NCBI GenBank assembly: GCA_903862465.1
Contig: CAIOYH010000068.1
Location: forward strand, 66,280-128,399
Source: an uncultured bacterium
Lineage (GTDB): Bacteria > Bacteroidota > Bacteroidia > Bacteroidales > CAIWKO01
Direction: 5' to 3'
Length of the DNA stretch: 62,120 bases
Position 1 is the stretch's first letter; every line of letters begins with the position of its first letter. Under the pieces are notes generated by a model that was not told the DNA's origin, ran no database searches, and saw only the letters and a list, made by a program, of their open reading frames with translations. Of this stretch, positions 630-53,946 are shown one piece after another. A program made the position numbers and the translations under genes.

Positions 630-1271
630 TTAAAACTTCACAAAAAAAGCCAAAACCCCCAACACCACCAAAACGCCTCCTGTGATGAGGCGTTCGTGAT
701 GTTCGAGGAAATGGGAGTTTATGCGCTGTGTGCCTTTTATGCCTATATAGACTAGCACCAACATCAGCATGACGGTGGTTAGGGTATATACCGCCGAAAC
801 AATAAAGATGCCGTTCCAACCTATCAAACCGGCTTGAAAGTAATAGGCTTCGATTTCGATGCAGGGCGTCAAAAACATGGCTAGGCTCAAACTGCTGAGG
901 ATGGCAACCTTCGATTTGGTGTTGCTGCGGCTTTTGGGCATGCCGTGTTCGTGATGATGATGGTGGTGGTGATGGTTCGAGATAAAATTCACGATGATAT
1001 ACACCAAGCCTATTCCCACTAAAATGGCGGGCGCGATATAGGTCATGATTACGTTATAGCTGTCGGCGAGTTTGATGCCCACAAAGCCTACAATGATGCC
1101 AATTATCACGGTGCTCAGGGTATGCGCAAAGCCCGTGATGGCGGTGGCGCCCAAGGTTTCGCTCACAGTCCATTTCTCTGTTTTGCCAATGGCGATGAGC
1201 GGTATCCAATGGTTGGGAATGGAGGCATGTATCAAACTCAAGAGAAGACTGCCGATGAATATTTGCCACAT
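630..1271 (-). CDS. His-rich multi-pass membrane protein, nickel/cobalt transporter-like (HoxN/NixA/RcnA/UreH-like superfamily)
   Basis: About 6 hydrophobic segments; N-terminal HASIPNHW motif; HHHHHHHHEH loop; PCIE motif. Confidence 0.65.
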   Translation of the reverse strand: MWQIFIGSLLLSLIHASIPNHWIPLIAIGKTEKWTVSETLGATAITGFAHTLSTVIIGIIVGFVGIKLADSYNVIMTYIAPAILVGIGLVYIIVNFISNHHHHHHHHEHGMPKSRSNTKSKVAILSSLSLAMFLTPCIEIEAYYFQAGLIGWNGIFIVSAVYTLTTVMLMLVLVYIGIKGTQRINSHFLEHHERLITGGVLVVLGVLAFFVKF

Positions 1272-2337: not shown

Positions 2338-3276
2338 TTAAGCCGGACGTATCGGAATCAGAATTTCGCGTTCTATGGTTTCGGATGGTTTGTGGGCAGG
2401 ATTTTCGGCATAAATTTCATAACCTACAATTTCTTTTATCGCATATCCGCTTTCGGGAATCCACCCATGACTGAAAAATGCAAGACTTTTTACCGTTGAA
2501 AACAAATTTCCCTGAAAGGCATAAGAGGCATAAAACCCATCGGGCACTTTCGTGAGACTTGCTTCGCGCGGCAATTTCTCCATGGCAGGAACCGTAATGC
2601 CCGCCCAATATCTGCATTTTTCAATTGAAGTGATAAAAGGAATATCCAACAACATGCCCACAAAGCGCGTTTCGGCGGTGAGCAATCCCCGCGGAGCCGC
2701 CCATTGGCATAGTTTGCGATAGGCAAGCGAAATGGCATCACTTTTATCTAAGCAGGTGCTTTGATATACCAAATCGAAGCCTTGCACTCTTTTTGTTGAA
2801 ATAATCACTTTATCGTTCCAATCCATGATTTCGTCCATTGAAAAATCTCGAATGCAAAGATCGTTGGTATTTATCAAAGAGGTTTTGCCATTCTTGCTAT
2901 TCGTTTTGCCTAAGTTGCGATATTGTTCGTTGGATAATTGTCTGTATTCTATAGCACTTACGTCAAAGAAGTTTTTGAAAGCACGCGAAAAGGTGGAAAG
3001 GGAGGTGAATCCGCTCCTATCGGCGAGGTCGGAAACGGGCACATCGGGAAAAACTCGCAAGTAATGCGCTATGCGTTCCAAGCGCAAACGGATGATATAT
3101 TGTTTGGGAGTTTCGCCCACAAAATGCGAAAACATGCGCTGAAAATGAAAGGGCGAATAATGGGCTACATCTGCCAATCGTTGCAAGGAAAGGTCACCTT
3201 CGAGGTTGATTTGAATATATTCCAACACTTTTCGGATATAGATTCCTGTGGCTTTGTCGTCTTCGGTGTGGTGCAT
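2338..3276 (-). CDS. AraC-family transcriptional regulator with C-terminal GyrI-like ligand-binding domain
   Basis: N-terminal double HTH (LSLQRLADVAHYSPFHFQRMF; SGFTSLSTFSRAFK); GyrI-like C-terminus (KCRYWAGITV, GYEIY). Confidence 0.9.
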   Translation of the reverse strand: MHHTEDDKATGIYIRKVLEYIQINLEGDLSLQRLADVAHYSPFHFQRMFSHFVGETPKQYIIRLRLERIAHYLRVFPDVPVSDLADRSGFTSLSTFSRAFKNFFDVSAIEYRQLSNEQYRNLGKTNSKNGKTSLINTNDLCIRDFSMDEIMDWNDKVIISTKRVQGFDLVYQSTCLDKSDAISLAYRKLCQWAAPRGLLTAETRFVGMLLDIPFITSIEKCRYWAGITVPAMEKLPREASLTKVPDGFYASYAFQGNLFSTVKSLAFFSHGWIPESGYAIKEIVGYEIYAENPAHKPSETIEREILIPIRPA

Positions 3277-3329
3277 GGATGTTGGTTTTTTGATGTTTGC
3301 TGTTACATTATATATATTGTATGATTACA

Positions 3330-4223
3330 TCATTTCTTCTTCGCATAAAATCCTTCGATGTTTTTCCAACGTTTGTGCGACCATAGCCAATATTGAGGGG
3401 CGCGCAAAATCGTTTTTTCCAAACATTCGATATAGGAATTCATGATAAACCCATATTCGCATTGCTGCGGATTGTCGGTGATTTTGATGAGATGGATTGT
3501 GTAGGTGCCTTTCTTTACGCGAATCATATCGGCATACACCACGGGGAAATTGTAGTCTTTGGCATATTTTTCGGCGCCATACATAAACTCGGTTTCTTTA
3601 TGAAGAAACATAACCGGAAAGCCTTTCTTGACGCCCCCGGGATATTGATCTGCCAAAAATAGACTAGCAGTGAGGTGGTCTTTATCTTTAGCAAACTCTT
3701 CTTTGATGTTGTTGGCATGGATGATTTTCATGCCTGTTTTGCTACGTTTGTTATTAATCAAAACATTCAACACGGCATTCGACAACGGTTTGCCAACGCC
3801 GATGGCTAAATGCGGAAACAACAAGTTGAGCGAATAAATCAACAATTCCCAATTGCCATAATGCGCCGACATGAAGATAACGCTTCTGTTTTCGGCGGCA
3901 TATTGTTCCATGATTTCGGGATTATCGCAGGATAGATGGCGCAACAGACCTTTTCTGCTTATGGTTAGATATTTTACGGTTTCCAAAAACATATCCGACA
4001 AATGCATATAGAATTGTTTCGCGATTTTGTGAGTATCCACCTCCGCGGGGAAGCTGCCTTTTAGGTTTTGCATCACCACCTTCTTGCGATAGCCAAACAC
4101 ATAATATAACATCACAAACATGAATTTCGAAACGCCATACAGCACCCACATCGGCAGCAGAGAAAACAACAGCAGCACGAAAAAAAGGAGATAATTTAGA
4201 CATTTAGAAATGAAAGTCATCAT
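3330..4223 (-). CDS. Lipid A late acyltransferase family protein (LpxL/HtrB-like)
   Basis: SAHYGNWE catalytic motif, FLADQ, QYWLWSHKRWK; N-terminal membrane anchor. Confidence 0.9.
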   Translation of the reverse strand: MMTFISKCLNYLLFFVLLLFSLLPMWVLYGVSKFMFVMLYYVFGYRKKVVMQNLKGSFPAEVDTHKIAKQFYMHLSDMFLETVKYLTISRKGLLRHLSCDNPEIMEQYAAENRSVIFMSAHYGNWELLIYSLNLLFPHLAIGVGKPLSNAVLNVLINNKRSKTGMKIIHANNIKEEFAKDKDHLTASLFLADQYPGGVKKGFPVMFLHKETEFMYGAEKYAKDYNFPVVYADMIRVKKGTYTIHLIKITDNPQQCEYGFIMNSYIECLEKTILRAPQYWLWSHKRWKNIEGFYAKKK

Positions 4224-8736: not shown

Positions 8737-8751
8737 ACAAAAACCTGCATA

Positions 8752-9059
8752 CATATTGCAGGGGTATGACATAGTCATCCCACAAATGTAAAATCATATT
8801 GCAGGGGTATGACATAGTGTTCGCGGAAACCCGCGGACATATTGCAGGGGTATGACATAGTGCTCGCGGAAACCTGCGGACATATTGCAGGGGTATGACA
8901 TAGTGCTCGCGGAAACCCGCGGACATATTGCAGGGGTATGACATAGTGTTCGCGGAAACCCGCGGACATATTGCAGGGGTATGACATAGTGTTCGCGGAA
9001 ACCCGCGGACATATTGCAGGGGTACGACATAGTGTTCGCGGAAACTTGCGAGCATATTT
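8752..9059. repeat. Tandem array A2: 43-bp period, 24-nt arm CATATTGCAGGGGTATGACATAGT plus hairpin GTTCGCGGAAACCCGCGGA
   Basis: CATATT at 8752, 8795, 8838, 8881, 8924, 8967, 9010, 9053. Six near-identical units; the first unit keeps the arm but has a different 19-mer. Confidence 0.97.
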
Positions 9060-14712: not shown

Positions 14713-15198
14713 ATGAAAAAGATTTTGGCTTTCGATTGTGATCTGACGGAGGATTATAGTGCCATTGCGCTCAGCACTCATCTGAAAGATTACAAACTTT
14801 GTTGGAATCTGAATACGGTTTTAGATATCAATCTGCAAAAAAATACCAATTTCGTTTCCTCCAAAAAGAAACCAAACCTCGAAGAATATTCTTTTTTTTA
14901 TCATGAGGATAAAGAACAGAGAAGCGTTCTCTGTCTATTGGCAAACAAAAAAAACAATGTGTTGCTGTTGGATAAAATGCCCGAGACTGACTTTCTGCTG
15001 CTGATAAAAGGCAAGATGAGTGCCGATAAAATCAAAGCGATGATAAAAACCATCCGCAGCATCACCAACATATTGACCGCTTTTGTCATCAACATGGCAA
15101 AATATAGCGAAATGAATAGCTTGCTGAGCGATTTGGAACTACATTGCATTCAGGTGTTGCCGAAAGAGGAAAAGAGGCGGGGGAAGGAAGGGGTTTAG
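14713..15198 (+). CDS. IPExxxVDY-family protein
   Basis: LKDYKLCWNLN and MPETDFLL motifs typical of this Bacteroidota family. Confidence 0.75.
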   Translation: MKKILAFDCDLTEDYSAIALSTHLKDYKLCWNLNTVLDINLQKNTNFVSSKKKPNLEEYSFFYHEDKEQRSVLCLLANKKNNVLLLDKMPETDFLLLIKGKMSADKIKAMIKTIRSITNILTAFVINMAKYSEMNSLLSDLELHCIQVLPKEEKRRGKEGV

Positions 15199-15315: not shown

Positions 15316-15527
15316 AATGCAGTTGTATATGCCCATCCCTGCCGAGGGTGATGCACTAATACAGTTGTCGGGGATAGTTCCGCACGAGCGGAATGCTCCA
15401 ATACAGTTGTCGGGGATAGTTCCGCACAAGCGGAATGCTCCAATACAGTTGTCGGGGATAGTTTCGCACGAGCGGAATGCCCCAATACAGTTGTATAGGA
15501 TAGTTTCGCACGAGCGGAATGCTCCAA
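15316..15527. repeat. Tandem array A3: 42-bp period, consensus AATACAGTTGTCGGGGATAGTTCCGCACGAGCGGAATGCTCC
   Basis: Units at 15358, 15400, 15442, 15484, plus a divergent unit at 15316; internal hairpin TTCCGC-ACGA-GCGGAA (stem substituted to TTTCGC in the last two units). Confidence 0.95.
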
Positions 15528-21025: not shown

Positions 21026-24000
21026 TTAGAAGGTGAATTTAACATTAAGACTGAAATCGCGAGTTGATGGTAATGAACCAACAGAATATCCTTGTATGTT
21101 ACCGGCACCTAAGCCTGATTCGGGGTCAGCATACGGTAAATTTTTGAAGATAATCCATGGATTAGAAGCAACAGCTGCAACGGTGAATCCGCTGATGAAG
21201 CATTTTTTAAACACTTTGCTTGGCAATGAATACGCTAAAGAAACTTCTCTGAGTTTTACGAAAGTTGCATCATAAATGAAAGCTTTATCAGGATTTCTAG
21301 CATAACCAAATGCTCCATAACTGCCGGCATTTATTCTAGTAACGTTTGGAGTGGATGATCCGTCAGGAAGAATGTTTACACCTTCGTTGATAAAACCACC
21401 ACTTGTGGACGCGTAACCTTGTGAATGGTCAGCAGGATTCACCCATACGATTGGGTCGCGAACTGCATTTCCCAAGTCGTTGGTGTAAGCAGTTTCGGGA
21501 TATATACCTGTTGCAAGTCCGTAATACATATCTAAAGAGAATATATCGCCACCTTTTTGTACATCAATCAAGAAGCTTAGATTCCAATTGCCCAATGTAA
21601 ACGAGTTAGAAATACCACCGGTCCAATCAGGATTTACGTTGCCAATAATATTATCAGAAGTACCTGTTTTTAAATATCTGCCGTTTGCAGCATTCACAAC
21701 TCTGTTGTTGTCTTTATCATAAATAAAATCTGTACCGTAAATAACGCCATAAGGTTGACCAACTTGTGCATTAAGCGTAACGCCACCTTGGAAAGAACCT
21801 AATTGGAGATTATCAACACCTTCGAGTAAGGAAATAACTTTGTTGTAGTTTTTTGCCCAGTTTACAGTGATGTCCCATTTGAATTTTTTGCATTTAACAG
21901 GAGTGGCATTCAAAGCAACTTCGATACCTGAGTTTTGGATTTCACCTGCATTAATCATTTTGAAGGTATAACCTGTGGCTACAGATACTGCTAGAGGCAA
22001 AATTTGGTTTTTGGTGTTGGTTTTGTAAACGGCTAGATCAAAACCGATTCTTCTTCCAAAGAAATACATTTCGAGACCACCTTCGATGCTGCTTGTTTTT
22101 TCAGGTACTAATTCTGAATTTTTCTTGGTACCAGCTACTGATGTTATCGGAGATCCCATTGGGGTTATGATGTTATAATTGTCAGCCAATTGATCGAAGC
22201 TTGCGCTGTTGCCAACCATAGCATAGTTCAAACGAACTTTTCCGAAAGATAACCATTTTGAATCTGGCAAAAGGTGTGAAAATACCCAACTACCGGCTAC
22301 TGATGGATAAAAATAAGAGTTTTTATCTTTTGGTAAAGTGGATGATTGATCTCTACGTAATGTTACGTCTAAATAAAGCATGCTTTTGTATCCTAAGGAA
22401 ACGCTTCCATAAATACCATTAACGCCTACTTTAGATGCCAATTCTTTTGACAATGGCAATGGACCTATACTGTTTTGAAGTGAATATAATTCAGGAACAG
22501 CTAATCCACCATTGGTAGAAGAAATGATACGACTGAAATTGGTTCTTCTGATATTTAATCCTAAAACACCTTTTATATTAAAGTTCTTCGAAAAATCATG
22601 ATGGAAATTGCCCATGAGGTCATAGTTATATTCGCTGAAAGTAATATCTCTTCTCATATAACCGGAACCTTGTTCGCTACGACCGATGCTACCATCAGAA
22701 CCGGTACCGATTCCAAAAGGTGTGGCGATGCTTCCAACAGCTCTGCGTTCTTCTTGCAATTCATTATAGGAATCGGCAGAGAAACGACCAAAAATATCAA
22801 ACCAATTGGTTACTTTATAATTTACGGACATATATCCTACGAAACGATTTCTGTTGTCGCTTTCATAGTTCTTGTAACGTGTCCAATAAGGATTATCCCA
22901 ATAAATTGGTTTTGCATCTGTTGGATCTGCATAGTTCCAAGTGATGTTTCTTCCGGTAAGATCATACATGTCTTTTTGTTGTTGATAGTCCACATTGGTT
23001 TCCATCCATTGGCGGAAGGAGGTCATGATGTTGTCGCTATAACCGGTTGAGTTACGTCCTAAGCCTTTGGTGGTGCTAAAATTACCCGAACCCGATACGG
23101 TTAAGCGGTCATTTACGTTCCAAGTTCCATTTAATAAGATATTGTTCTTATTTAATTTGCTGTTTGGAAGCAATCCTTTTTGGGTGAAATTAGTATAAGA
23201 TAAACGATACGAACCTTTGGCGCCTGAATTATCTATAGCCACAGAATTTGTAAATGTAACCGGTTTTTGGAAAAAGGTAACAGGTCCGTTTTCGGCGGCA
23301 ACCCAAGGTGTTGCTTTTAAATAATTGGGTGATTCTGGATCAACGGCATCCCATTGGTAAACCATAAGATCAGGATTAAAAGCAGGTCCATAAGAGGCAT
23401 CATCAATAACGTTTGACCATTGCTCCATAATTCCATCATGATTAAGATCTGCTTCTGTCCAATAAAGTCCGTAACCTGCACCATATTGTTTTTGGTAGGT
23501 TGGGAATGTGCTTTTGTCAACCCATCCCACGGTAACACCGGAATTTAAGGTAACGCCACAGAATTTCTTTTTGCCTTCGGTTGTGCTTACAGTTGGGGCA
23601 CCTTTTTTGGTTGTTATCATGATAACACCACCAGCAGCACGCGAACCATAAAGAGCTGTTGCAGCCGAGCCTTTCAATACGTTGATAGATTCAATGTCAT
23701 CAGGGTTGATGTCGGAGGCAGCATTTCCATAATCGTATCCAATTCCGCCTTGTGATTGTCCCGAAGAGTTGTAGGTGCTGTTGTTTACAGGAACACCATC
23801 AACAACAAACAGAACCTGATTGTCGCCGGTTAATGATTTGCTACCACGCAAAAGCACGTTGGTTGAACCGCCCATGTTGGTAGTTTTTTTAACTTGAACT
23901 CCGGAAACTTTTCCTGATAAGGCATTGATGAAGTTGTCGGTTTTGATAGTCGAAACTTGATCGCCTTTGATTTCTTGTGTGGAATAACCCAAAGATTTCT

Positions 24001-24349
24001 TTTCTCTTGAAATACCTAGAGCGGTTACAACCACTCCTTCGATGTTCATAACGTCGGTTTCCAATACAATGTCGATTGTTGTTTTTCCACCGAGTGTTAC
24101 TTCTTGCGGTTTCATCCCAACGAAAGATACAACGAGAACGTCGTATTTAGCCGGAACGGAGAGGGTGAATTTCCCATTGGCATCGGTAACAGTTCCAATG
24201 GTTGTGCTTTTGACTACAACAGTTACGCCGGGTAAGGTGGTGCCATCGTCTTTGCTGGTCACCGTGCCCGTAACAGTTTTCTGTTGTGCAAAAGCCATCT
24301 GTAATCCTGAAAATAGCAGAACTACGCATAGAAATGTAAATTTTCTCAT
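21026..24349 (-). CDS. SusC/RagA-family TonB-dependent outer-membrane transporter
   Basis: N-terminal carboxypeptidase-regulatory-like domain; plug motif DINPDDIESINVLKGSAATALYGSRAAGG; C-terminal Phe. Confidence 0.97.
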   Translation of the reverse strand: MRKFTFLCVVLLFSGLQMAFAQQKTVTGTVTSKDDGTTLPGVTVVVKSTTIGTVTDANGKFTLSVPAKYDVLVVSFVGMKPQEVTLGGKTTIDIVLETDVMNIEGVVVTALGISREKKSLGYSTQEIKGDQVSTIKTDNFINALSGKVSGVQVKKTTNMGGSTNVLLRGSKSLTGDNQVLFVVDGVPVNNSTYNSSGQSQGGIGYDYGNAASDINPDDIESINVLKGSAATALYGSRAAGGVIMITTKKGAPTVSTTEGKKKFCGVTLNSGVTVGWVDKSTFPTYQKQYGAGYGLYWTEADLNHDGIMEQWSNVIDDASYGPAFNPDLMVYQWDAVDPESPNYLKATPWVAAENGPVTFFQKPVTFTNSVAIDNSGAKGSYRLSYTNFTQKGLLPNSKLNKNNILLNGTWNVNDRLTVSGSGNFSTTKGLGRNSTGYSDNIMTSFRQWMETNVDYQQQKDMYDLTGRNITWNYADPTDAKPIYWDNPYWTRYKNYESDNRNRFVGYMSVNYKVTNWFDIFGRFSADSYNELQEERRAVGSIATPFGIGTGSDGSIGRSEQGSGYMRRDITFSEYNYDLMGNFHHDFSKNFNIKGVLGLNIRRTNFSRIISSTNGGLAVPELYSLQNSIGPLPLSKELASKVGVNGIYGSVSLGYKSMLYLDVTLRRDQSSTLPKDKNSYFYPSVAGSWVFSHLLPDSKWLSFGKVRLNYAMVGNSASFDQLADNYNIITPMGSPITSVAGTKKNSELVPEKTSSIEGGLEMYFFGRRIGFDLAVYKTNTKNQILPLAVSVATGYTFKMINAGEIQNSGIEVALNATPVKCKKFKWDITVNWAKNYNKVISLLEGVDNLQLGSFQGGVTLNAQVGQPYGVIYGTDFIYDKDNNRVVNAANGRYLKTGTSDNIIGNVNPDWTGGISNSFTLGNWNLSFLIDVQKGGDIFSLDMYYGLATGIYPETAYTNDLGNAVRDPIVWVNPADHSQGYASTSGGFINEGVNILPDGSSTPNVTRINAGSYGAFGYARNPDKAFIYDATFVKLREVSLAYSLPSKVFKKCFISGFTVAAVASNPWIIFKNLPYADPESGLGAGNIQGYSVGSLPSTRDFSLNVKFTF

Positions 24350-24717
24350 AAGCTTTGTTTTTTGGTTAGTGTTTGGTTAGTGTTTGTTTTAATTGATTTT
24401 TCTTGTGTTTTTTGTTTTTGATACGTTTTTTACTACATAATTGACGAGATTAATTAATACTAAATTTAGTTATAAGCCTTGTCGTTGGGGGCGTTCAGGT
24501 AAAAATGACGTCGCTAACGAAATGCAAATTTAAGCAATATGAACACGTAATGCTATATGTTTTACGGATTTTTATTAAAAAAGTTTTGAACACCCTCTAA
24601 ATGTCTCAAAAATAACATGAATTTTTCAGGAATCTGTTGCTAAAATTTGTTCGGATTATAGGTCTATATTGTTGAAAACGTGTTGAAAAATATTTTTTTA
24701 TTTCCCGAGAAAAATAT

Positions 24718-24748
24718 TTTGCCAATAGAAAAATACTTCGTAATTTTG
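24718..24748 (+). promoter_or_regulatory. Consensus Bacteroidota promoter for H2
   Basis: TTTG (24718-24721), 19-nt spacer, TAATTTTG (24741-24748). Confidence 0.75.
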
Positions 24749-24807
24749 CGCGGTGATATATATCATATAATATTATTAATTAAAAAAAGAAAGGAGACAA
24801 AAAAACT

Positions 24808-25512
24808 ATGGGAAACGTTTCTGGAGTAGTTACTCCAACAAACAAAACAAATTTTGAAGAAGCGGTTGCAGCCGCTGCGGCAGAATTGCCATTTTTGAAA
24901 AGCGCCACTAAGAAGGAACGTATGGAGCTAGTGAAAATGGGTTTAAAAAACACAGGCTTTGTCAATGCTGTTTACACTGGCATTGGTGCTCACTTGGGCA
25001 TATTGCCTTCGGATTTTAATATGGCAGCATTCACCGAAGACATCAAGTTGAAACAAGAGTTGCCATATCTCAAACAACTCTTGGTAGGGTTGGTTGAAAA
25101 AATGGACGATACCGATTTGTTGTTGGGCAACGACTTGATGGTAGCGGCTCTTTATGTTTATTCATTGATGAAGGTAGCAGCAAAAAATAATGCTGAAATC
25201 AAAACATTGGTGGATGAAATTGCAGAAAATTGGATAAACTCAGGCAAAAAGAAAGCAAACACCGTTTTCTCGATTGCTTCTAGCAGCACGATCACCGTTG
25301 CTAATGTTGTTGCTTCTAAGTCATTTTTGAACAACGGAATCACGCTATTAAAATTAAAAGTAGGCGCTGATCTTGTTTCAAAATTTCCTTTAGCAGATCC
25401 TATTACCGTTGACCCGGGGAATTCAGTAAAAATTCCTAAGGGTTGGACGATTATTGAAGTTACGAATCTTAGCGGAACGGCGGCAGGTAGCTTTTCCATT
25501 AAGATTAAGTAA
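24808..25512 (+). CDS. Hypothetical protein H2 (helical N-domain + beta-sandwich-like C-domain)
   Basis: 234-aa ORF with its own promoter and terminator; no signal peptide; amphipathic helices to about aa 150, then beta-rich. Confidence 0.85.
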   Translation: MGNVSGVVTPTNKTNFEEAVAAAAAELPFLKSATKKERMELVKMGLKNTGFVNAVYTGIGAHLGILPSDFNMAAFTEDIKLKQELPYLKQLLVGLVEKMDDTDLLLGNDLMVAALYVYSLMKVAAKNNAEIKTLVDEIAENWINSGKKKANTVFSIASSSTITVANVVASKSFLNNGITLLKLKVGADLVSKFPLADPITVDPGNSVKIPKGWTIIEVTNLSGTAAGSFSIKIK

Positions 25513-25541
25513 ATACGTGAGGTTATTTTAATCTTTAGTGG

Positions 25542-25578
25542 CAAATTCGCATCCTTTGGGTGCGAATTTGTTATTTTA
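25542..25578 (+). terminator. Intrinsic terminator after H2
   Basis: CAAATTCGCATCC-TTT-GGGTGCGAATTTG stem, then TTATTTT. Confidence 0.8.
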
Positions 25579-25601
25579 TGGAGTTCCTTTTAGGAAATAT
25601 T

Positions 25602-26107
25602 GGAACTATATAGGTGCATTGCCGGAGCAATATAAGTGCATTGCCGGAGCTATATAGGTGCATCGTTGGAGCTATATAGGTTCATCGCCGGAGCTTTATA
25701 GGTGCCTCGTCGGAGCTATATAGGTTCATCGTCGGAGCTATATAGGTGCATCTTTGGAGCTGTATAGGTGCATTGTCGGAGCTATATAGGTTCATCGTCG
25801 GAGCTATATAGGTGCATCTTTGGAGTTATATAGGTGCATCGTTGGAGCTATATAGGTTAATCGCCGGAGCTTTATAGGTGCCTCGTCGGAGCTATATAGG
25901 TTCATCGTCGGAGCTGTATAGGTGGATCTTTGGAGTTATAAAGGTGCATCTTTGGAGTTATATAGGTGCATCGTCGGTGCTATATAGGTTCATCGTCGGA
26001 GCTACATAGGTGTGTCGTTGGAGCTCTATAGGTGCATCGCCGGAGCTATATAGGTGTGTCGTCGGAGCTACATAGGTCTATCATCGGAGCTATGTAGATG
26101 ATAAATT
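25602..26107. repeat. Tandem array A4: 22 x 22 bp (plus degenerate ends), consensus GGAGCTATATAGGTGCATCGTC
   Basis: Unit starts every 22 bp from 25602 to 26086; core palindrome CTATATAG; no indels; units 3-7 are echoed by units 11-15. Confidence 0.98.
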
Positions 26108-26227
26108 AGATTAGGTGGGGACTTCATTTGTCTTCGAAGTAATATAGTGGGAAAAATTCCTGCCTCTACCTATTATATATATAAACCGCAATACCTACCC
26201 TCTTCCAATTAATTTCAGAAAAAAGAA

Positions 26228-26258
26228 TTTGCAATGACGCCGATTTTTTGTAATTTTG
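26228..26258 (+). promoter_or_regulatory. Consensus promoter for the DUF4175-like/ybeY operon
   Basis: TTTG (26228-26231), 19-nt spacer, TAATTTTG (26251-26258). Confidence 0.7.
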
Positions 26259-26310
26259 CAATCAACCTAAAATATTGTAAGGGGAAGTTCGTTTAAATAC
26301 AAAAAAATAC

Positions 26311-29300
26311 GTGGCAGAACACAACAACATATTGATTGAGAAACTAGATGGTTTCATAAAAAAATATTACAAAAACCAATTGCTGAAGGGGCTGATACTT
26401 TTCGTATCGTTTCTATTGGCAATGTTTTTGGTGGTATCGCTGCTCGAATATTTCGCCTATTTCAACACGGTGGTGCGCACCGCCTTGTTTTATACCTATA
26501 TTGTGGCAAACGCTGTGGTGCTGTGGCGCTTCATTGTGATACCGATTTTCCATCTCTATAAAATAGGAAAAACCATCTCCTACGAGCAAGCCGCCAACAT
26601 CATCGGCAAATTTTTCCCCGAGATAAACGACAAACTCCTCAACACACTGCAACTGCAACGCCTTTCGATGCAAGAAACCTCAAGTTCCGAATTGTTAGAG
26701 GCAAGCATCCATCAAAAAATAAAGAAACTAAGCCCCATACCCTTTGTGGCTGCAGTTGATTTCAAAATCAACAGGAAATATCTAAAATTTTTGCTGCCTC
26801 CGGTCGCTGTGTTGGTGGTCATATTGATTGCTGCCCCCGCCATCGTCACCGAGTCGTCGAACAGAATCATCAACTACACCACCTTTTTTGAAAAACAAGC
26901 CCCCTTCAATTTCCAAATTCTCAACAAAAACCTAGAGGCAATTCAGCAACAAGATTTTCAACTCGATGTGAAGATGACCGGCAACGACATTCCGAATGAG
27001 ATTTTTTTGGTGGCAAATCAAAATGAATTCAAGCTTACCAAAGAAAACATAGTGTTGTTTCATCATACCTTTAAAAATATACAGAAATCGCAAACTTTTT
27101 ATCTGAAAGGAAATGGGTTCCGCTCCAAAGACTACACCATTTCGGTGATACCCAAACCGATTATTCTCGATTTTGAATTGCAGCTCAACTACCCCGCCTA
27201 CACAGGCAAAAAAAGCGAAACCCTTGAAAATTCAGGCGACCTGACCGTTCCATGTGGAACCAATATCGCGTGGAAAATAAAAACTAAAGACACAAAAAAA
27301 CTCTTTTTTCAATTTATTGATAAAGGATTTTTCTTGCAGCCGGGTTCCGAAAATCAGTTTGCTTACAATCAGCTTTTCTTCGTCACTCAAAACTATTCGG
27401 TGGCAACCTACAACGAGTTCATCAAAAATCCCGATTCATTGTCTTATTCCATAAATGTGATACCCGATGCCTATCCTTATATTGATTTGACGGAGTATCG
27501 CGATTCGCTTTACACGAGTCGCCTCTACTTTAAAGGGATGATTAAGGATGATTATGGTTTCAACAAACTATTGTTTAAATATCGGAAAACCAAAATTGAT
27601 AAGGAAAGCGATGCGGAGCAAATGAAGAGTATTGCGATTACGAAAGGCATGAACCAACAGGACTTTTATTATTATTTTGATATAGCGGAATTGGGCGTTG
27701 AGGCGGGTGATGATATTGAATATTATTTTGAAGTATGGGATAATGATGCCATAAAGGGCAGCAAAGCTACGCGTTCGCAGAAAATGGTTTTTAAAGTTCC
27801 TACTTTGGATGAAATTCAAAAAGAAACCGAACAAAACAACGAAGACGTCAAGGATAAGATGGACCAAGCCATCAAAGATATCAGTCAATTGCAAAAGCAA
27901 ATCGAGGAGATGAACAAGAAAATGTTGGACAAAAAAACCTTGAATTGGCAAGAACGCAAACAAATTGAAGACCTGCTCAACAAGCAACAGCAGATGCAAA
28001 AAAATGTGGAAGAATTGAAAAATCAGATACATCAAAACAACATCAAGGAGAAACAATTTAACACTGTTGACCAAAATATATTGGATAAAGAAAAGCAATT
28101 GGAAGATTTGTTTAACAAACTCATGACCGACGACATGAAGGATATGTTCAAGCAAATGCAAGAAATGATTGATAAGCTCGACAAGAACAAGGTGAACGAT
28201 ATGTTGGACAAAATGAAGCTCTCCAACAAAGATATTGAAAAGGAACTTGATCGCAACTTGGAACTATTCAAACAACTTGAGTTTGATAAAAAGATGACCG
28301 AAACGATAGATAAGCTTCAGAAACTTTCAGATCAACAGCAGAAGCTTTCGGAGCAGACCAAAGACGAAACCAATAAGCAAGAGGACTTGTTGGAGAAACA
28401 AAAGGAAGTCAACGATCAGTTTAACGATGTGAAAAAGGACATTGACAAACTCAACTCTCTCAACAAAGAACTTGAAGACAAAAAAAACTTAGAGAAAACG
28501 GAAGAAAAACAGGATGCCATTCAACAAGAGCTCAACAATAGTCAGAATAGCCTGCAAAACAACAAACGCAAAAACGCCTCAAAGTCGCAACTAAATGCAT
28601 CGGAGCAGATGAAGCAGATGGCGGATGAGATGAAAAAGAATAAAGAAGAAATGGAGCAAGAAGCCGCAGAGGAAGACGAAAAGGCGCTGCGAGCCATTTT
28701 AGAAAACTTGGTGAATGTTTCGTTTGGACAGGAAGCGCTAATTGGCAAGCTTCAGACCACTAATGTTGCGGATCCAAAGTTCACCAATATTATGGATAAG
28801 CAAAAAGAGTTGAAGGATGATTTAAAAATGATTGAAGATTCCTTGCTTGCTTTGAGTAAACGACAGGTGGCAATTCAGCCAATTGTGAATCGAGAAATAA
28901 CGCTGATAAACGACAATGTGGGCAAAAGCCTAGAGTATCTTCAGGATAGAAATGTATCTTATGCACAATCTACGCAACAGTATGTGATGACATCTGTAAA
29001 CAATTTGGCATTGATTTTAGCTGAATCTTTGCAGCAAATGCAACAACAAATGCAATCGAAATCCTGCAAATCCGGTAAGAGTAGCAAGTGCAACAAACCG
29101 GGAAGTGGAAAGCCCTCGGCAGCCACCATGAAACAAATGCAGGAGAAATTGAACAAACAGATGGATGCATTAAAGAAGCAAATGGAAGATGGGAAAAAGA
29201 AAGGCGAAACAGGGAAAAAGGGCGAAAACGGACAGCAATCTACAAGTGAGCAATTAGCTCGCCTGGCTGCGCAACAGGAAGCCATTCGCCAAATGATGAA

Positions 29301-29667
29301 GCAATATGGCGACGAATTGAAAAAAGAAGGTGTTGGCAATGATGGAAAGGTGAGTGATATGATGAAACAAATGGAACAAACGGAAACAGATCTCGTGAAT
29401 AAAATGCTGAATTCGGAAACTATGAAACGGCAGCAAGAAATTTTAACACGGCTGTTAGAGTCCGAAAAGGCTGAGAAAGAAAGAGAATTGGATGATAAAA
29501 GAGAATCAAATGAATCAAAAATCAAAAATTATAGTAACCCAAATCAATTTTTCGAGTATAAAAGATTAAAATCAAAAGAACTCGAATTGCTCAAAACAAT
29601 ACCCGTAACTTTAACCCCATTTTTTAAGTATAAAGCGAACGAGTACTTTTATAATTTTGCAGATTGA
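26311..29667 (+). CDS. Large membrane-anchored coiled-coil protein (DUF4175-like)
   Basis: GTG start; N-terminal TM segments, Ig-like middle, long Q/E/K coiled-coil C-terminal half. Confidence 0.8.
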   Translation: MAEHNNILIEKLDGFIKKYYKNQLLKGLILFVSFLLAMFLVVSLLEYFAYFNTVVRTALFYTYIVANAVVLWRFIVIPIFHLYKIGKTISYEQAANIIGKFFPEINDKLLNTLQLQRLSMQETSSSELLEASIHQKIKKLSPIPFVAAVDFKINRKYLKFLLPPVAVLVVILIAAPAIVTESSNRIINYTTFFEKQAPFNFQILNKNLEAIQQQDFQLDVKMTGNDIPNEIFLVANQNEFKLTKENIVLFHHTFKNIQKSQTFYLKGNGFRSKDYTISVIPKPIILDFELQLNYPAYTGKKSETLENSGDLTVPCGTNIAWKIKTKDTKKLFFQFIDKGFFLQPGSENQFAYNQLFFVTQNYSVATYNEFIKNPDSLSYSINVIPDAYPYIDLTEYRDSLYTSRLYFKGMIKDDYGFNKLLFKYRKTKIDKESDAEQMKSIAITKGMNQQDFYYYFDIAELGVEAGDDIEYYFEVWDNDAIKGSKATRSQKMVFKVPTLDEIQKETEQNNEDVKDKMDQAIKDISQLQKQIEEMNKKMLDKKTLNWQERKQIEDLLNKQQQMQKNVEELKNQIHQNNIKEKQFNTVDQNILDKEKQLEDLFNKLMTDDMKDMFKQMQEMIDKLDKNKVNDMLDKMKLSNKDIEKELDRNLELFKQLEFDKKMTETIDKLQKLSDQQQKLSEQTKDETNKQEDLLEKQKEVNDQFNDVKKDIDKLNSLNKELEDKKNLEKTEEKQDAIQQELNNSQNSLQNNKRKNASKSQLNASEQMKQMADEMKKNKEEMEQEAAEEDEKALRAILENLVNVSFGQEALIGKLQTTNVADPKFTNIMDKQKELKDDLKMIEDSLLALSKRQVAIQPIVNREITLINDNVGKSLEYLQDRNVSYAQSTQQYVMTSVNNLALILAESLQQMQQQMQSKSCKSGKSSKCNKPGSGKPSAATMKQMQEKLNKQMDALKKQMEDGKKKGETGKKGENGQQSTSEQLARLAAQQEAIRQMMKQYGDELKKEGVGNDGKVSDMMKQMEQTETDLVNKMLNSETMKRQQEILTRLLESEKAEKERELDDKRESNESKIKNYSNPNQFFEYKRLKSKELELLKTIPVTLTPFFKYKANEYFYNFAD

Positions 29668-52587: not shown

Positions 52588-53145
52588 AAAATGTTAGGTA
52601 TTATAACGGCAACCATTATCGTTATAATGACTACCATTATCGTTGTAACGGCAACCATTATCGTTATAACGGCAACCATTATCGTTATAACGACTACCAT
52701 TATCGTTATAACGGCAACCATTATCGTTATAACGACTACCATTACCATTGTAACGACTACCATTGCCATTATAACGACTACCATTATCGTTATAACGACT
52801 ACCATTGCCATTATAACGACTACCATTATCGTTATAACGACTACCATTGCCATTATAACGACTACCATTAACATTATAACGACTACCATTATCGTTATAA
52901 CGACTACCATTATCGTCATAACGACTACCATTATCGTCATAACGACTACCATTATCGTTATAATGACTACCATTGCCATTATAACGACTACCATTGCCAT
53001 TATAACGACTACCATTGCCATTATAACGACTACCATTATCGTTATAACGACTACCATTGCCGTTATAACGACTATCATTAAAATTATAACGCCTAACATC
53101 ATCGTTGTAACGACAATGCTAGGCGTTGTAATTCCTAAATATTTT
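52588..53145. repeat. Tandem array A5: 22 core + 4 degenerate units of 21 bp, consensus ACCATTATCGTTATAACGACT, with inverted termini
   Basis: ACCATT every 21 bp from 52612 to 53053; palindrome CGTTATAACG in the main variant; ends AAAATGTTAGGTATTATAACG (52588) and CGTTGTAATTCCTAAATATTTT (53124) are near-inverted copies. Confidence 0.98.
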
Positions 53146-53175: not shown

Positions 53176-53946
53176 TTACAGTACAACAAAATAAATCCAG
53201 TCGCCAAAGTTGTAGTTAGAAGAATCTATACCATCGGCAACTTGAAAGATGCGTTTATGCGTTTTGGTGCTTGCCGAACGTGTTGCGGGTTCTTCCACAT
53301 TGGTGACAATAGTGCCGCCACCTGCTTTGCGGGGAATGGTCAGGATACTTGCTTCGCGCATGCCGTAAATGCCTCCCACCTTTAAACCGCATAGCACAAA
53401 TTCGGTTTCCAAGCCAAAAAGAGGTTCCATCCAGATTTCGGGTGGAACACCTTTTTCAGTAGTCAAACCATATTGGCGAATATAGCCTGCACGAAGGTCC
53501 ACTGCTTTTGTGCTAACCCAAACTTCGCCATTGCCCAAAGGATAGGCGTCGAATATTTTATTGGTAGCGCTTTTTGGTGATTTCAGATAATAGCCGGCAA
53601 TCTTAACCATATTAATGCCCAAATTGATATCTCCCGTTGCAATTGCTTTTGCACGGGCAGCAGTTTGAATAAAAAATGCATTGGCATTGTAGCCCGTGCA
53701 CAATAGATTCATCTTTGAATTTACCAATTCTTTGGTGGATGTTGGTGGAATCATCTTGAATTTGTTATGTTCGGTATTCGTGTTGGTGCCCAACAGATGC
53801 ATGTCTGTATCATCGTGGGGAATGTCTGCCAACTCTGTTATACCGGTAGTGTTTTGGCGCGCTGCCTTCGCCACATTTTCTTCAACCGGGTCTTTGGGAT
53901 TTGCCAAAAGAACAACAATTGAATTTGCTGATTTTAATTCTGTCAT
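53176..53946 (-). CDS. Hypothetical protein H3 (helical N-domain + fibronectin type III-like C-domain)
   Basis: 256-aa ORF; helical N-half ending GDINLGINMVKIAGYYLK, then beta-strands (GEVWV...YIRQY...W...FVLCGLKVGGIYGMR) with an Fn3-like pattern; -7 element TACATTTG at 54026-54019. Confidence 0.8.
   Translation of the reverse strand: MTELKSANSIVVLLANPKDPVEENVAKAARQNTTGITELADIPHDDTDMHLLGTNTNTEHNKFKMIPPTSTKELVNSKMNLLCTGYNANAFFIQTAARAKAIATGDINLGINMVKIAGYYLKSPKSATNKIFDAYPLGNGEVWVSTKAVDLRAGYIRQYGLTTEKGVPPEIWMEPLFGLETEFVLCGLKVGGIYGMREASILTIPRKAGGGTIVTNVEEPATRSASTKTHKRIFQVADGIDSSNYNFGDWIYFVVL

Follow-up and report, generated by a model that had tools for sequence, protein, structure and literature searches.

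Does a tandem array that lies just past the end of a small gene belong to that gene, and if so, what might the two do together? The question is raised by positions 24718–26107 of a 62,120-nucleotide stretch of DNA ("the window" below always means this whole stretch), which maps to contig C68 of a 4.23-Mb, 230-contig metagenome-assembled genome (MAG) of a freshwater member of the Bacteroidota. Here the gene of a 234-residue protein, H2, is followed by an intrinsic terminator and then by an array of 22-bp units. The original prediction, made by a model from the letters of the window, had read the locus as promoter, gene, terminator and array in that order, and all four parts were found: the promoter at 24718–24748, the open reading frame (ORF) at 24808–25512, the terminator hairpin at ~25537–25581 and the array at 25602–26107. 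While the cassette itself was thus described correctly, two aspects had been missed, namely the scale on which such arrays occur throughout the genome and the joint allelic replacement of gene and array. Below we show, as far as the sequences of related strains can tell, that gene and array are replaced together as one allelic cassette, and we weigh what the array may be for.

Gene and array form one cassette

The link between gene and array in the H2 family is real. In this genome an array lies within 400 bp of the 3′ end of all five H2-family genes (5/5), compared with 6.3% of all genes (P about 1e-6), and each of the four paralogs of H2, some full-length and some reduced to the N-terminal (N) domain, is directly followed at its 3′ end by a 21- or 42-bp array of unrelated sequence. 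Among 20 independent full-length relatives from public assemblies and related genomes, ~18 have a clear array 30–450 bp downstream, and a 3′ array is present even beside family members that are only 21–26% identical to H2. The exceptions are locus L022, with a degenerate array of GTACTTCCGAAGTAC-type motifs, and a pseudogene in genome G005, with a relic. In the latter, the H2 ortholog at the same site (L064, G005:C18, 2074–2775) carries an in-frame TAG after codon 113 and ~3 units are left of the array beside it (3058–3130 of L064), a pattern that could mean either that gene and array decayed together or that the assembly is in error. A short-form family member with two stop codons has no array. 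Most of the ~158-residue short forms, which have no C-terminal (C) domain, also carry 3′ arrays, suggesting that the N domain is the common partner of the arrays.

The original prediction would have failed had close relatives shown H2 without an array, or the array without H2, equally often; instead, relatives nearly always have an array and this array never occurs without H2. Cassettes of the family hold ~6–23 units, with a period near two helical turns (21–22 bp, or dimers of 42–44 bp). All nine members at least 42% identical to H2 (9/9) have periods of 22 or 43–44 bp, loci that are phylogenetically related and hence not an independent count, and distant members mostly have a period of 21 bp. 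A metagenome scan for further H2–array loci found none.

The site itself exists in an empty form, as had been envisaged: five genomes of the same genus (G002, G012, G014, G015 and G016) have susC beside the gene of a DUF4175 protein, with neither H2 nor the array between them. Their susC orthologs are 73–85% identical at the amino acid level, the gap between susC and the DUF4175 gene is ~215–320 bp, and homology to the intergenic region of our window is lost near 24373 on the susC side and picks up again near 26243 on the side of the DUF4175 gene.

Comparison with the metagenome contig L010 reveals how the occupied site changes. Identity is 92–100% from susC up to 24746, including the H2 promoter stretch (92%), and falls just past the promoter to 68% in the H2 5′ untranslated region (UTR), placing the left edge of a hypervariable block at ~24747; the promoter is therefore within the part that is kept conserved between allelic cassettes. 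Across H2 the two strains are 60–73% identical in nucleotides and 65% in amino acids, with 83% at the terminator. The L010 array, with the unit GGTCAACTTAGGTAGGTGTAGC, does not align with the array described here, and its 3′ edge retains a degenerate unit of the type found in this window. The cassette tail (26108–26243) holds the right edge of the variable block: it is 70% identical, climbing to 83–97% from ~26200, and identity is back at 90–97% from ~26257. Since the synonymous divergence (dS) between the two H2 alleles is 1.25, and thus saturated, although the flanks are nearly identical, the segment ~24747–26200 is an old divergent allele that was swapped by recombination in the conserved flanks, with gene and array moving together.

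Three further genomes hold a cassette at this site. G010 has an H2 that is 96% identical and a unit identical in type, with 12 units versus 23 here; its last five units are colinear with units 18–23 of our array, while its interior is rearranged and has local duplications of its own. Copy number therefore changes on the timescale of strains, and turnover of the array is fast. G017 has an H2 that is 49% identical and an array with a period of 43 bp and an unrelated sequence. In G011, the closest of the relatives without H2, the DUF4175 gene is 98% identical and a different gene-plus-array cassette is present (L063, G011:C432), with a 21-bp × 12 array (GTTCGCACGAGATTGGAAAGG) at 2062–2320, 5′ of a 320-residue gene at 2579–3541; the family of this gene is a different one, of which the genome studied here also holds an array-linked member. 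The site between susC and the DUF4175 gene may thus be a hot spot for cassettes. Units close to GTTCGCACGAGATTGGAAAGG are also found at C47:17654–18129 and at the start of C2 in G000, the genome to which the window belongs. These comparisons show a conserved two-part cassette, H2 and its array, whose gain, loss, decay and exchange involve both parts together.

Structure of the array and of H2

Tandem Repeats Finder (TRF) places the array at 25602–26097, with a period of 22, 22.5 copies, 82% matches and the consensus GGAGCTATATAGGTGCATCGTC, and an in-register reading resolves it into 22 good units and a degenerate 23rd that ends at 26107. Within each unit, ~14 bp form a conserved core (GGAGCtATATAGGT) and ~8 bp a variable linker, and one TATATA step is present. 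A 17-nt unit core has 22 in-phase matches on the plus strand and none elsewhere in the window, where 0.11 would be expected by chance, and the array sequence is present once in the 4.2-Mb genome. The array is non-coding, in agreement with the original prediction, because the palindrome CTATATAG places TAG on both strands, a period of 22 bp passes through each of the three frames in turn, and neither strand has an ORF of at least 50 residues from 25545 to 26310. A reading of the array as a protein repeat was rejected on these grounds.

The array also contains the higher-order duplication that had been proposed. Units 3–7 are duplicated as units 11–15, with units 5 and 13 and units 6 and 14 identical, the pairs 3/11 and 4/12 differing at one position and the pair 7/15 at two, and there is an extra three-unit duplication inside the array (6 = 9, 7 = 10). 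Block duplication accounts for this pattern, so that neither active homogenisation nor gene conversion need be invoked.

H2 has zero matches in Pfam, NCBIfam, PHROGs and PADLOC, or in the PDB by sequence, and by these searches is a member of an uncharacterised, previously undescribed protein family. It has no signal peptide and is taken to be cytoplasmic. An AlphaFold2 (AF2) model built from a 23-sequence alignment, with a predicted local distance difference test score (pLDDT) of 87.5 (a single-sequence model, at 47, was unusable), predicts a helical N domain at about residues 10–145, in which one helix is 53 residues long, a linker, and a jelly-roll-like C domain of eight strands at residues 152–231. 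Foldseek finds weak similarity of the C domain to cupin/jelly-roll domains and to small uncharacterised phage proteins, and no match for the N domain. The pI is 5.0 for the acidic N domain and 10.1 for the basic C domain, and it is the N domain that has diverged more between alleles of H2. The ratio of nonsynonymous to synonymous substitution rates of H2 is 0.18–0.21, indicating purifying selection; for comparison, that of the DUF4175 gene is 0.02.

With 687 cluster representatives at 50% clustering, the family comprises a ~235-residue form and a ~158-residue form that has only the N domain. Its distribution is patchy: 10 of 18 same-genus genomes carry it, as do only a few more within the order, and there are up to 6 copies per genome. 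One metatranscriptome contig of a related strain falls inside the H2 ORF. No homology of H2 to the other array-linked families of this genome was detected with hhalign.

A proposed role for the array

Our leading proposal, with a probability of roughly 0.4, is that the array offers docking sites in a phased row along double-stranded DNA, each made up of the ~14-bp core and the ~8-bp linker, which would be read by the N domain of its own protein. The array would then be the cognate cis partner of H2, and many copies of H2 could sit side by side along the same helical face, forming a nucleoprotein track comparable to those on iteron or centromere arrays, with each allele or paralog using its own "code". 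In favour of this proposal are the linkage of gene and array, their joint presence or absence and joint replacement, the N domain as the part shared by forms with an array, a period that goes with the protein clade, and the signs of a DNA-level element given below. Such a track might serve in the titration or autoregulation of H2, in the local marking of the chromosome or in self-recognition.

Several observations weigh against this proposal. The position of the array, 3′ of the gene and behind a terminator, is unusual for an operator, and the surroundings of the H2 promoter hold no extra copy of the unit (at most three mismatches to the 17-nt core), so that nothing points to simple autoregulation. 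A recognisable DNA-binding fold is absent from the H2 model in the Foldseek search. The palindrome of the unit has 4-bp arms, which are equalled or exceeded by ~39% of shuffled units, and arms of at least 5 bp are found in 25% of the 21-bp arrays of the genome versus 10% of shuffles. Matching between allele and unit is also expected from plain linkage and descent, and we therefore do not claim co-evolution of protein allele and unit. Finally, a gene of an array-enriched family adjoins no more than 80 of the 334 arrays, as described below. Dyad symmetry was dropped as a line of evidence, given that the unit palindrome is not above chance and that strong dyads occur only in a minority of arrays.

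Arrays across the genome

Across the whole genome, TRF detects ~441 arrays totalling 93.6 kb, of which 277 have a period of 21, 40 a period of 42, 18 a period of 43 and 5 a period of 22, and nearly all have a private unit sequence. The H2 locus had been singled out as the cleanest example of its kind. It is in fact one of ~441 arrays, of which only five have period 22. Among the 334 arrays analysed (the 21/42-bp class), 107 lie at contig ends, where they are a main cause of assembly fragmentation, making copy numbers from short reads unreliable; assembler contigs of public runs collapse the repeats. The orientation of genes around the arrays is much like that around ordinary intergenic regions.

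Eleven small-gene families are significantly enriched beside arrays (for example 34/40, 11/16, 8/14, 7/7 and 4/4 members), and the side on which the array lies is fixed in most of them, the largest family showing both sides. Inspected representatives have an apparently helical N part and a beta-sandwich-like C part, judging by sequence. Some of these families are linked to one another by profile comparison, and none is linked to H2.

This abundance lends weight to another explanation, in which a general process, such as slippage, unequal exchange or a ruler set by a factor acting in trans, makes and keeps 21-bp arrays in variable, recombination-prone intergenic spots that are shared with H2-type genes; the genes would be inherited or swapped along with any array next to them, and protein and array would not interact. 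It is favoured by the sheer number of arrays in 4.2 Mb and by the exact period of 21 in so many of them, and by the count of only 80 of 334 that adjoin an array-enriched family, which implies that arrays are also made or kept by some process that does not depend on these genes. Linkage alone would yield the matching of alleles to units, and the different cassette in G011 suggests a hot spot. By chance, however, it would be hard to obtain a constant 3′ side and near-100% occupancy across genera down to 21% identity, or strong array enrichment in eleven unrelated or distant small-gene families, most of them with a fixed side; in addition, arrays shrink next to broken genes. We regard arrays that merely hitch-hike with the genes as rather unlikely.

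A parallel exists outside this genome. Genes of DUF6261 (PF19775) in the same order (loci L066–L095), with up to 19 copies per genome, have a private 41/42-bp array 55–195 bp upstream in 12 of 28 cases. This genome has no PF19775 match, and comparison by hhalign of cl5, an array-linked family of G000 with proteins of ~320 residues, to DUF6261 is borderline (probability 46%, E = 2e-4). The H2 cassette is thus apparently a member of a broad and undescribed phenomenon, not a unique oddity.

Four further arrays of the window are noteworthy. A 21-bp × 24.5 array at 52601–53114 lies just 3′ of P0004, a 256-residue orphan gene on the minus strand (53176–53946), whose N-terminus resembles, by eye, a family of four members, cl10; all four have a 3′ array (4/4), and hhalign links cl10 at 97.7% to the 40-member family with 34/40 array neighbours. 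At 15351–15527, a 42-bp array is situated just past an IPExxxVDY-family gene (14713–15198; NCBIfam NF033205, E = 4e-21), and its unit (…GCTCCAATACAGTTGTCGGGGATAGTTCCGCACGAGCGGA) recurs at C15:10228–10455 of G000, so that some 42/43-bp arrays are multi-locus families, unlike the private 21/22-bp arrays. Between convergent ORFs at 8751–9058, a 43-bp × 5.8 array with 97% matches has a hairpin-like CGCGGAAACCCGCG core and may belong to a class apart from the 21-bp arrays, more like repetitive extragenic palindromic (REP) sequences or bacterial interspersed mosaic elements (BIMEs). Lastly, a 21-bp × 11 array at 343–577, with a higher-order period of 63 bp, is found 3′ of a gene (630–1271, minus strand) for a membrane protein rich in His and with a weak DsbD_2 match, and the partner gene of this array, if any, may be to the left of the window.

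DNA or RNA

The array is separated from its gene by a strong terminator on the plus strand, between the end of H2 and the first unit. Fold computation yields an 18-bp stem with a U-rich tail behind it (−24.4 kcal/mol, z = −5.8), although a simple consensus terminator scan does not flag it, and the array starts ~21–25 bp beyond the T tract. A comparable hairpin and T tract separates gene and array at 7 of 8 close-clade loci. In a scan of the 62-kb window, no −33/−7 promoter motif faces the array. Folding of array RNA is not significant on either strand (z = −1.67 and +0.30), and Rfam has no credible match, with no family (CRISPR included) at threshold. Across the H2 family there is no consistent strand skew, while 6 of 8 close-clade arrays are G+T-rich on the sense strand. 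The terminator before the array, together with the lack of a facing promoter, of a fold, of an Rfam match, of a consistent strand skew and of an Argonaute in the genome, leads us to favour an element that would act at the level of DNA over one in mRNA. The original prediction had stated that the array works on this level or as its own RNA; a role at the level of DNA is the reading we prefer too, on indirect evidence. A palindrome like that of the unit turns up about as often in shuffled units.

An RNA-level role would have the array transcribed, by read-through or from an unrecognised promoter, into 22-nt units that bind, sequester or are processed by H2, as in a type III toxin–antitoxin system or another ribonucleoprotein. 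A small module of gene, terminator and tandem repeat does recall toxIN, units are strictly private, much as type III antitoxins are specific for their cognate partners, the array is 5′ of the gene in other families of this genome, again as in toxIN, and the G+T-rich sense strands of the close clade point the same way. At H2, however, the order is reversed, and because the array lies behind a strong terminator, its RNA would be in deficit rather than in excess. No promoter motif or significant fold supports such an RNA, and units of 22 nt are too short for the known type III antitoxin pseudoknots. Rfam has no match, the genome has no Argonaute, and among the 50 best PDB matches listed H2 resembles neither the ToxN nor the AbiQ fold. 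The array was found in none of the RNA runs, a weak result that is no evidence of absence. An RNA partner for H2 is, on balance, unlikely. The related idea of small RNAs loaded into an Argonaute was ruled out by the lack of a Piwi domain in the genome.

Flanks and neighbouring genes

The H2 promoter (24718–24748, plus strand) is of the Bacteroidota type, matching the pattern of a −33 TTTG, N19 and a −7 TAATTTTG. This pattern has seven matches in the window, among them the H2 promoter and the promoter of the DUF4175 gene. The 5′ UTR (24749–24807) contains GGAG at 24793–24796, and the 234-residue reading frame begins with the ATG at 24808. H2 is the sole gene of the cassette, with no ORF of at least 50 residues between it and the DUF4175 gene. 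On the left, the insertion site is flanked by a SusC-like TonB-dependent receptor on the minus strand (21026–24349; Pfam Plug and CarboxypepD_reg), part of a SusC/SusD pair on that strand; on the right it is followed by the DUF4175 gene (26311–29667, plus strand) and a HATPase_c_2 protein. The promoter motif of the DUF4175 gene (26228–26258, plus strand) lies outside the cassette and is conserved in the empty-site genomes.

This arrangement bears on the possibility that the array serves a factor of the host and not H2, with phased DNA acting as a curved or flexible segment, an insulator, or a promoter- or enhancer-like element for H2, the DUF4175 gene or susC. A period held close to two helical turns across hundreds of arrays whose sequences vary freely would suit such an element, as would the TATATA step in every unit and the location of the array ~120 bp upstream of the DUF4175 promoter; moreover, BrickBuilt segments of Porphyromonas gingivalis show bidirectional promoter activity (PMC4596501). 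But the gene past the array is not consistently co-directional in relatives, being convergent in L009, the DUF4175 and susC genes function in five relatives that have no array, and a shared factor explains neither the fixed array side of each family nor the replacement of the unit along with the protein allele. We consider a host-factor element improbable, to about the same degree as an RNA partner.

A transposable element with an internal minisatellite, similar to the miniature transposable elements with inverted repeats (MITEs), is highly improbable: although MITE-like elements of P. gingivalis such as BrickBuilt or PgRS hold 22-, 23- and 41-nt tandem direct repeats (PMC4596501) and, compared with five related genomes, the cassette represents an insertion, no terminal inverted repeats (TIRs) bound the block, its unit occurs once in the genome where a MITE family shares sequence over many loci, searches of phage, plasmid and viral collections found no homologs, and the edges of the alleles have the look of homologous recombination within flanks that are conserved.

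Implications

If H2 reads its own array, as the docking-site proposal holds, it would represent a new DNA-recognition domain and, within a single genome, dozens of natural, mutually insulated protein–site pairs, which could be used to study the evolution of specificity and could supply engineering with orthogonal parts. An explanation would also follow for why, in some uncultured Bacteroidota, ~2% of the genome is given over to period-locked minisatellites that break short-read assemblies. A diverged gene and array between near-identical flanks is the usual signature of loci under balancing or diversifying selection, as in specificity, immunity and recognition, and the module may thus point to a layer of biology, at the level of strains of freshwater bacteria, that has gone unstudied.

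A wider generalisation is conceivable, though we find it doubtful. In this generalisation, a large class of "private-code" cassettes would have gone unrecognised in Bacteroidota, each made of a small cytoplasmic helical protein, with or without a beta-sandwich, and its own phased track, with H2, DUF6261 and at least ten other families as parallel cases. Each protein would read no track but its own, the helical domain would be a novel DNA-binding domain other than a helix-turn-helix, the period of ~21–22 bp would be set by the pitch of the protein assembly, and whole cassettes would pass between strains as alleles under balancing or diversifying selection, the whole forming an addressable system for chromosome marking or for telling self from non-self.

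Comparison with known systems

Judged by its sequence features, the cassette does not pass the defining tests for a Rep–iteron module, a partition centromere, a type III toxin–antitoxin system, a CRISPR array or a minisatellite MITE. The iteron arrays of theta plasmids, such as R6K, pPS10, F and P1, consist of 3–9 direct repeats of ~17–22 bp, spaced ~22 bp apart beside a Rep gene. The H2 array is like them in its tandem direct repeats phased at ~22 bp, with a 14-bp conserved core, an 8-bp variable linker and a sequence private to each system, and in adjoining the gene of a ~230–320-residue protein thought to read the repeats. It differs in having 12–23 units versus 3–9 and in lying 3′ of the gene, behind the terminator. 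Furthermore, the module is chromosomal, with up to 6 copies per genome and no origin features (a DNA unwinding element and DnaA boxes were not searched for specifically), and H2 matches no Rep family (winged-helix; RepA, π, TrfA) by sequence, nor is one present among the top 50 fold matches. No homolog of H2 occurs in 72,556 plasmid records, and copies of the family are dispersed on chromosomal contigs.

Plasmid centromeres provide a second comparison: sopC of F has 12 × 43 bp and parC of R1 has 10 × 11 bp. They share with the H2 family long phased arrays, including periods of 43 bp, and private specificity, and they bind many copies of a cognate protein as a nucleoprotein track. The cassette, however, encodes no motor of the ParA, ParM or TubZ type and no homolog of ParB or ParR, and H2 modules are dispersed on the chromosome, with none in the plasmid collection.

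Type III toxin–antitoxin systems (toxIN, cptIN, tenpIN and abiQ/antiQ) resemble the cassette in combining a compact tandem repeat, a terminator and one gene, in the cognate nature of the repeat and in fast divergence. The order is gene, terminator and array here and throughout the H2 family, the units are 21–22 nt versus 34–45 nt and number 12–23 versus 2–5.5, no structured RNA is predicted here, and H2 has no endoribonuclease fold (ToxN/AbiQ) among the top 50 PDB matches listed and no PADLOC match. A CRISPR array was set aside since the units abut without spacers and Rfam has no CRISPR match; cas genes were not searched for.

DUF6261 resembles the H2 family in its multi-copy proteins of ~240–260 residues, a helical N-terminal domain of ~150 residues and private phased arrays. 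Its array, however, is 5′ of the gene rather than 3′ as at H2, the hhalign probability against the H2 family is 0.3%, and hmmscan of the H2 family yields no match.

In the literature searched, which is incomplete in coverage, we found no description of gene-linked private arrays or of 21-bp arrays in Bacteroidetes. The nearest published objects are the BrickBuilt and 464/PgRS repeats of P. gingivalis, minisatellite MITE-like elements with units of 23 and 41 nt, respectively (PMC4596501), which are unlinked to a protein family. Like the H2 array, they are intergenic, spacer-less tandem direct repeats, of 22–23 or 41 nt, with a copy number that varies between strains, and their host lineage is Bacteroidales, the label that related MAG records supply for this window. 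Those elements, however, are multi-copy, with a shared unit, leader and tail regions and inverted-repeat ends, whereas the H2 array is private to one locus, has no TIRs bounding its block and is tied to a protein family.

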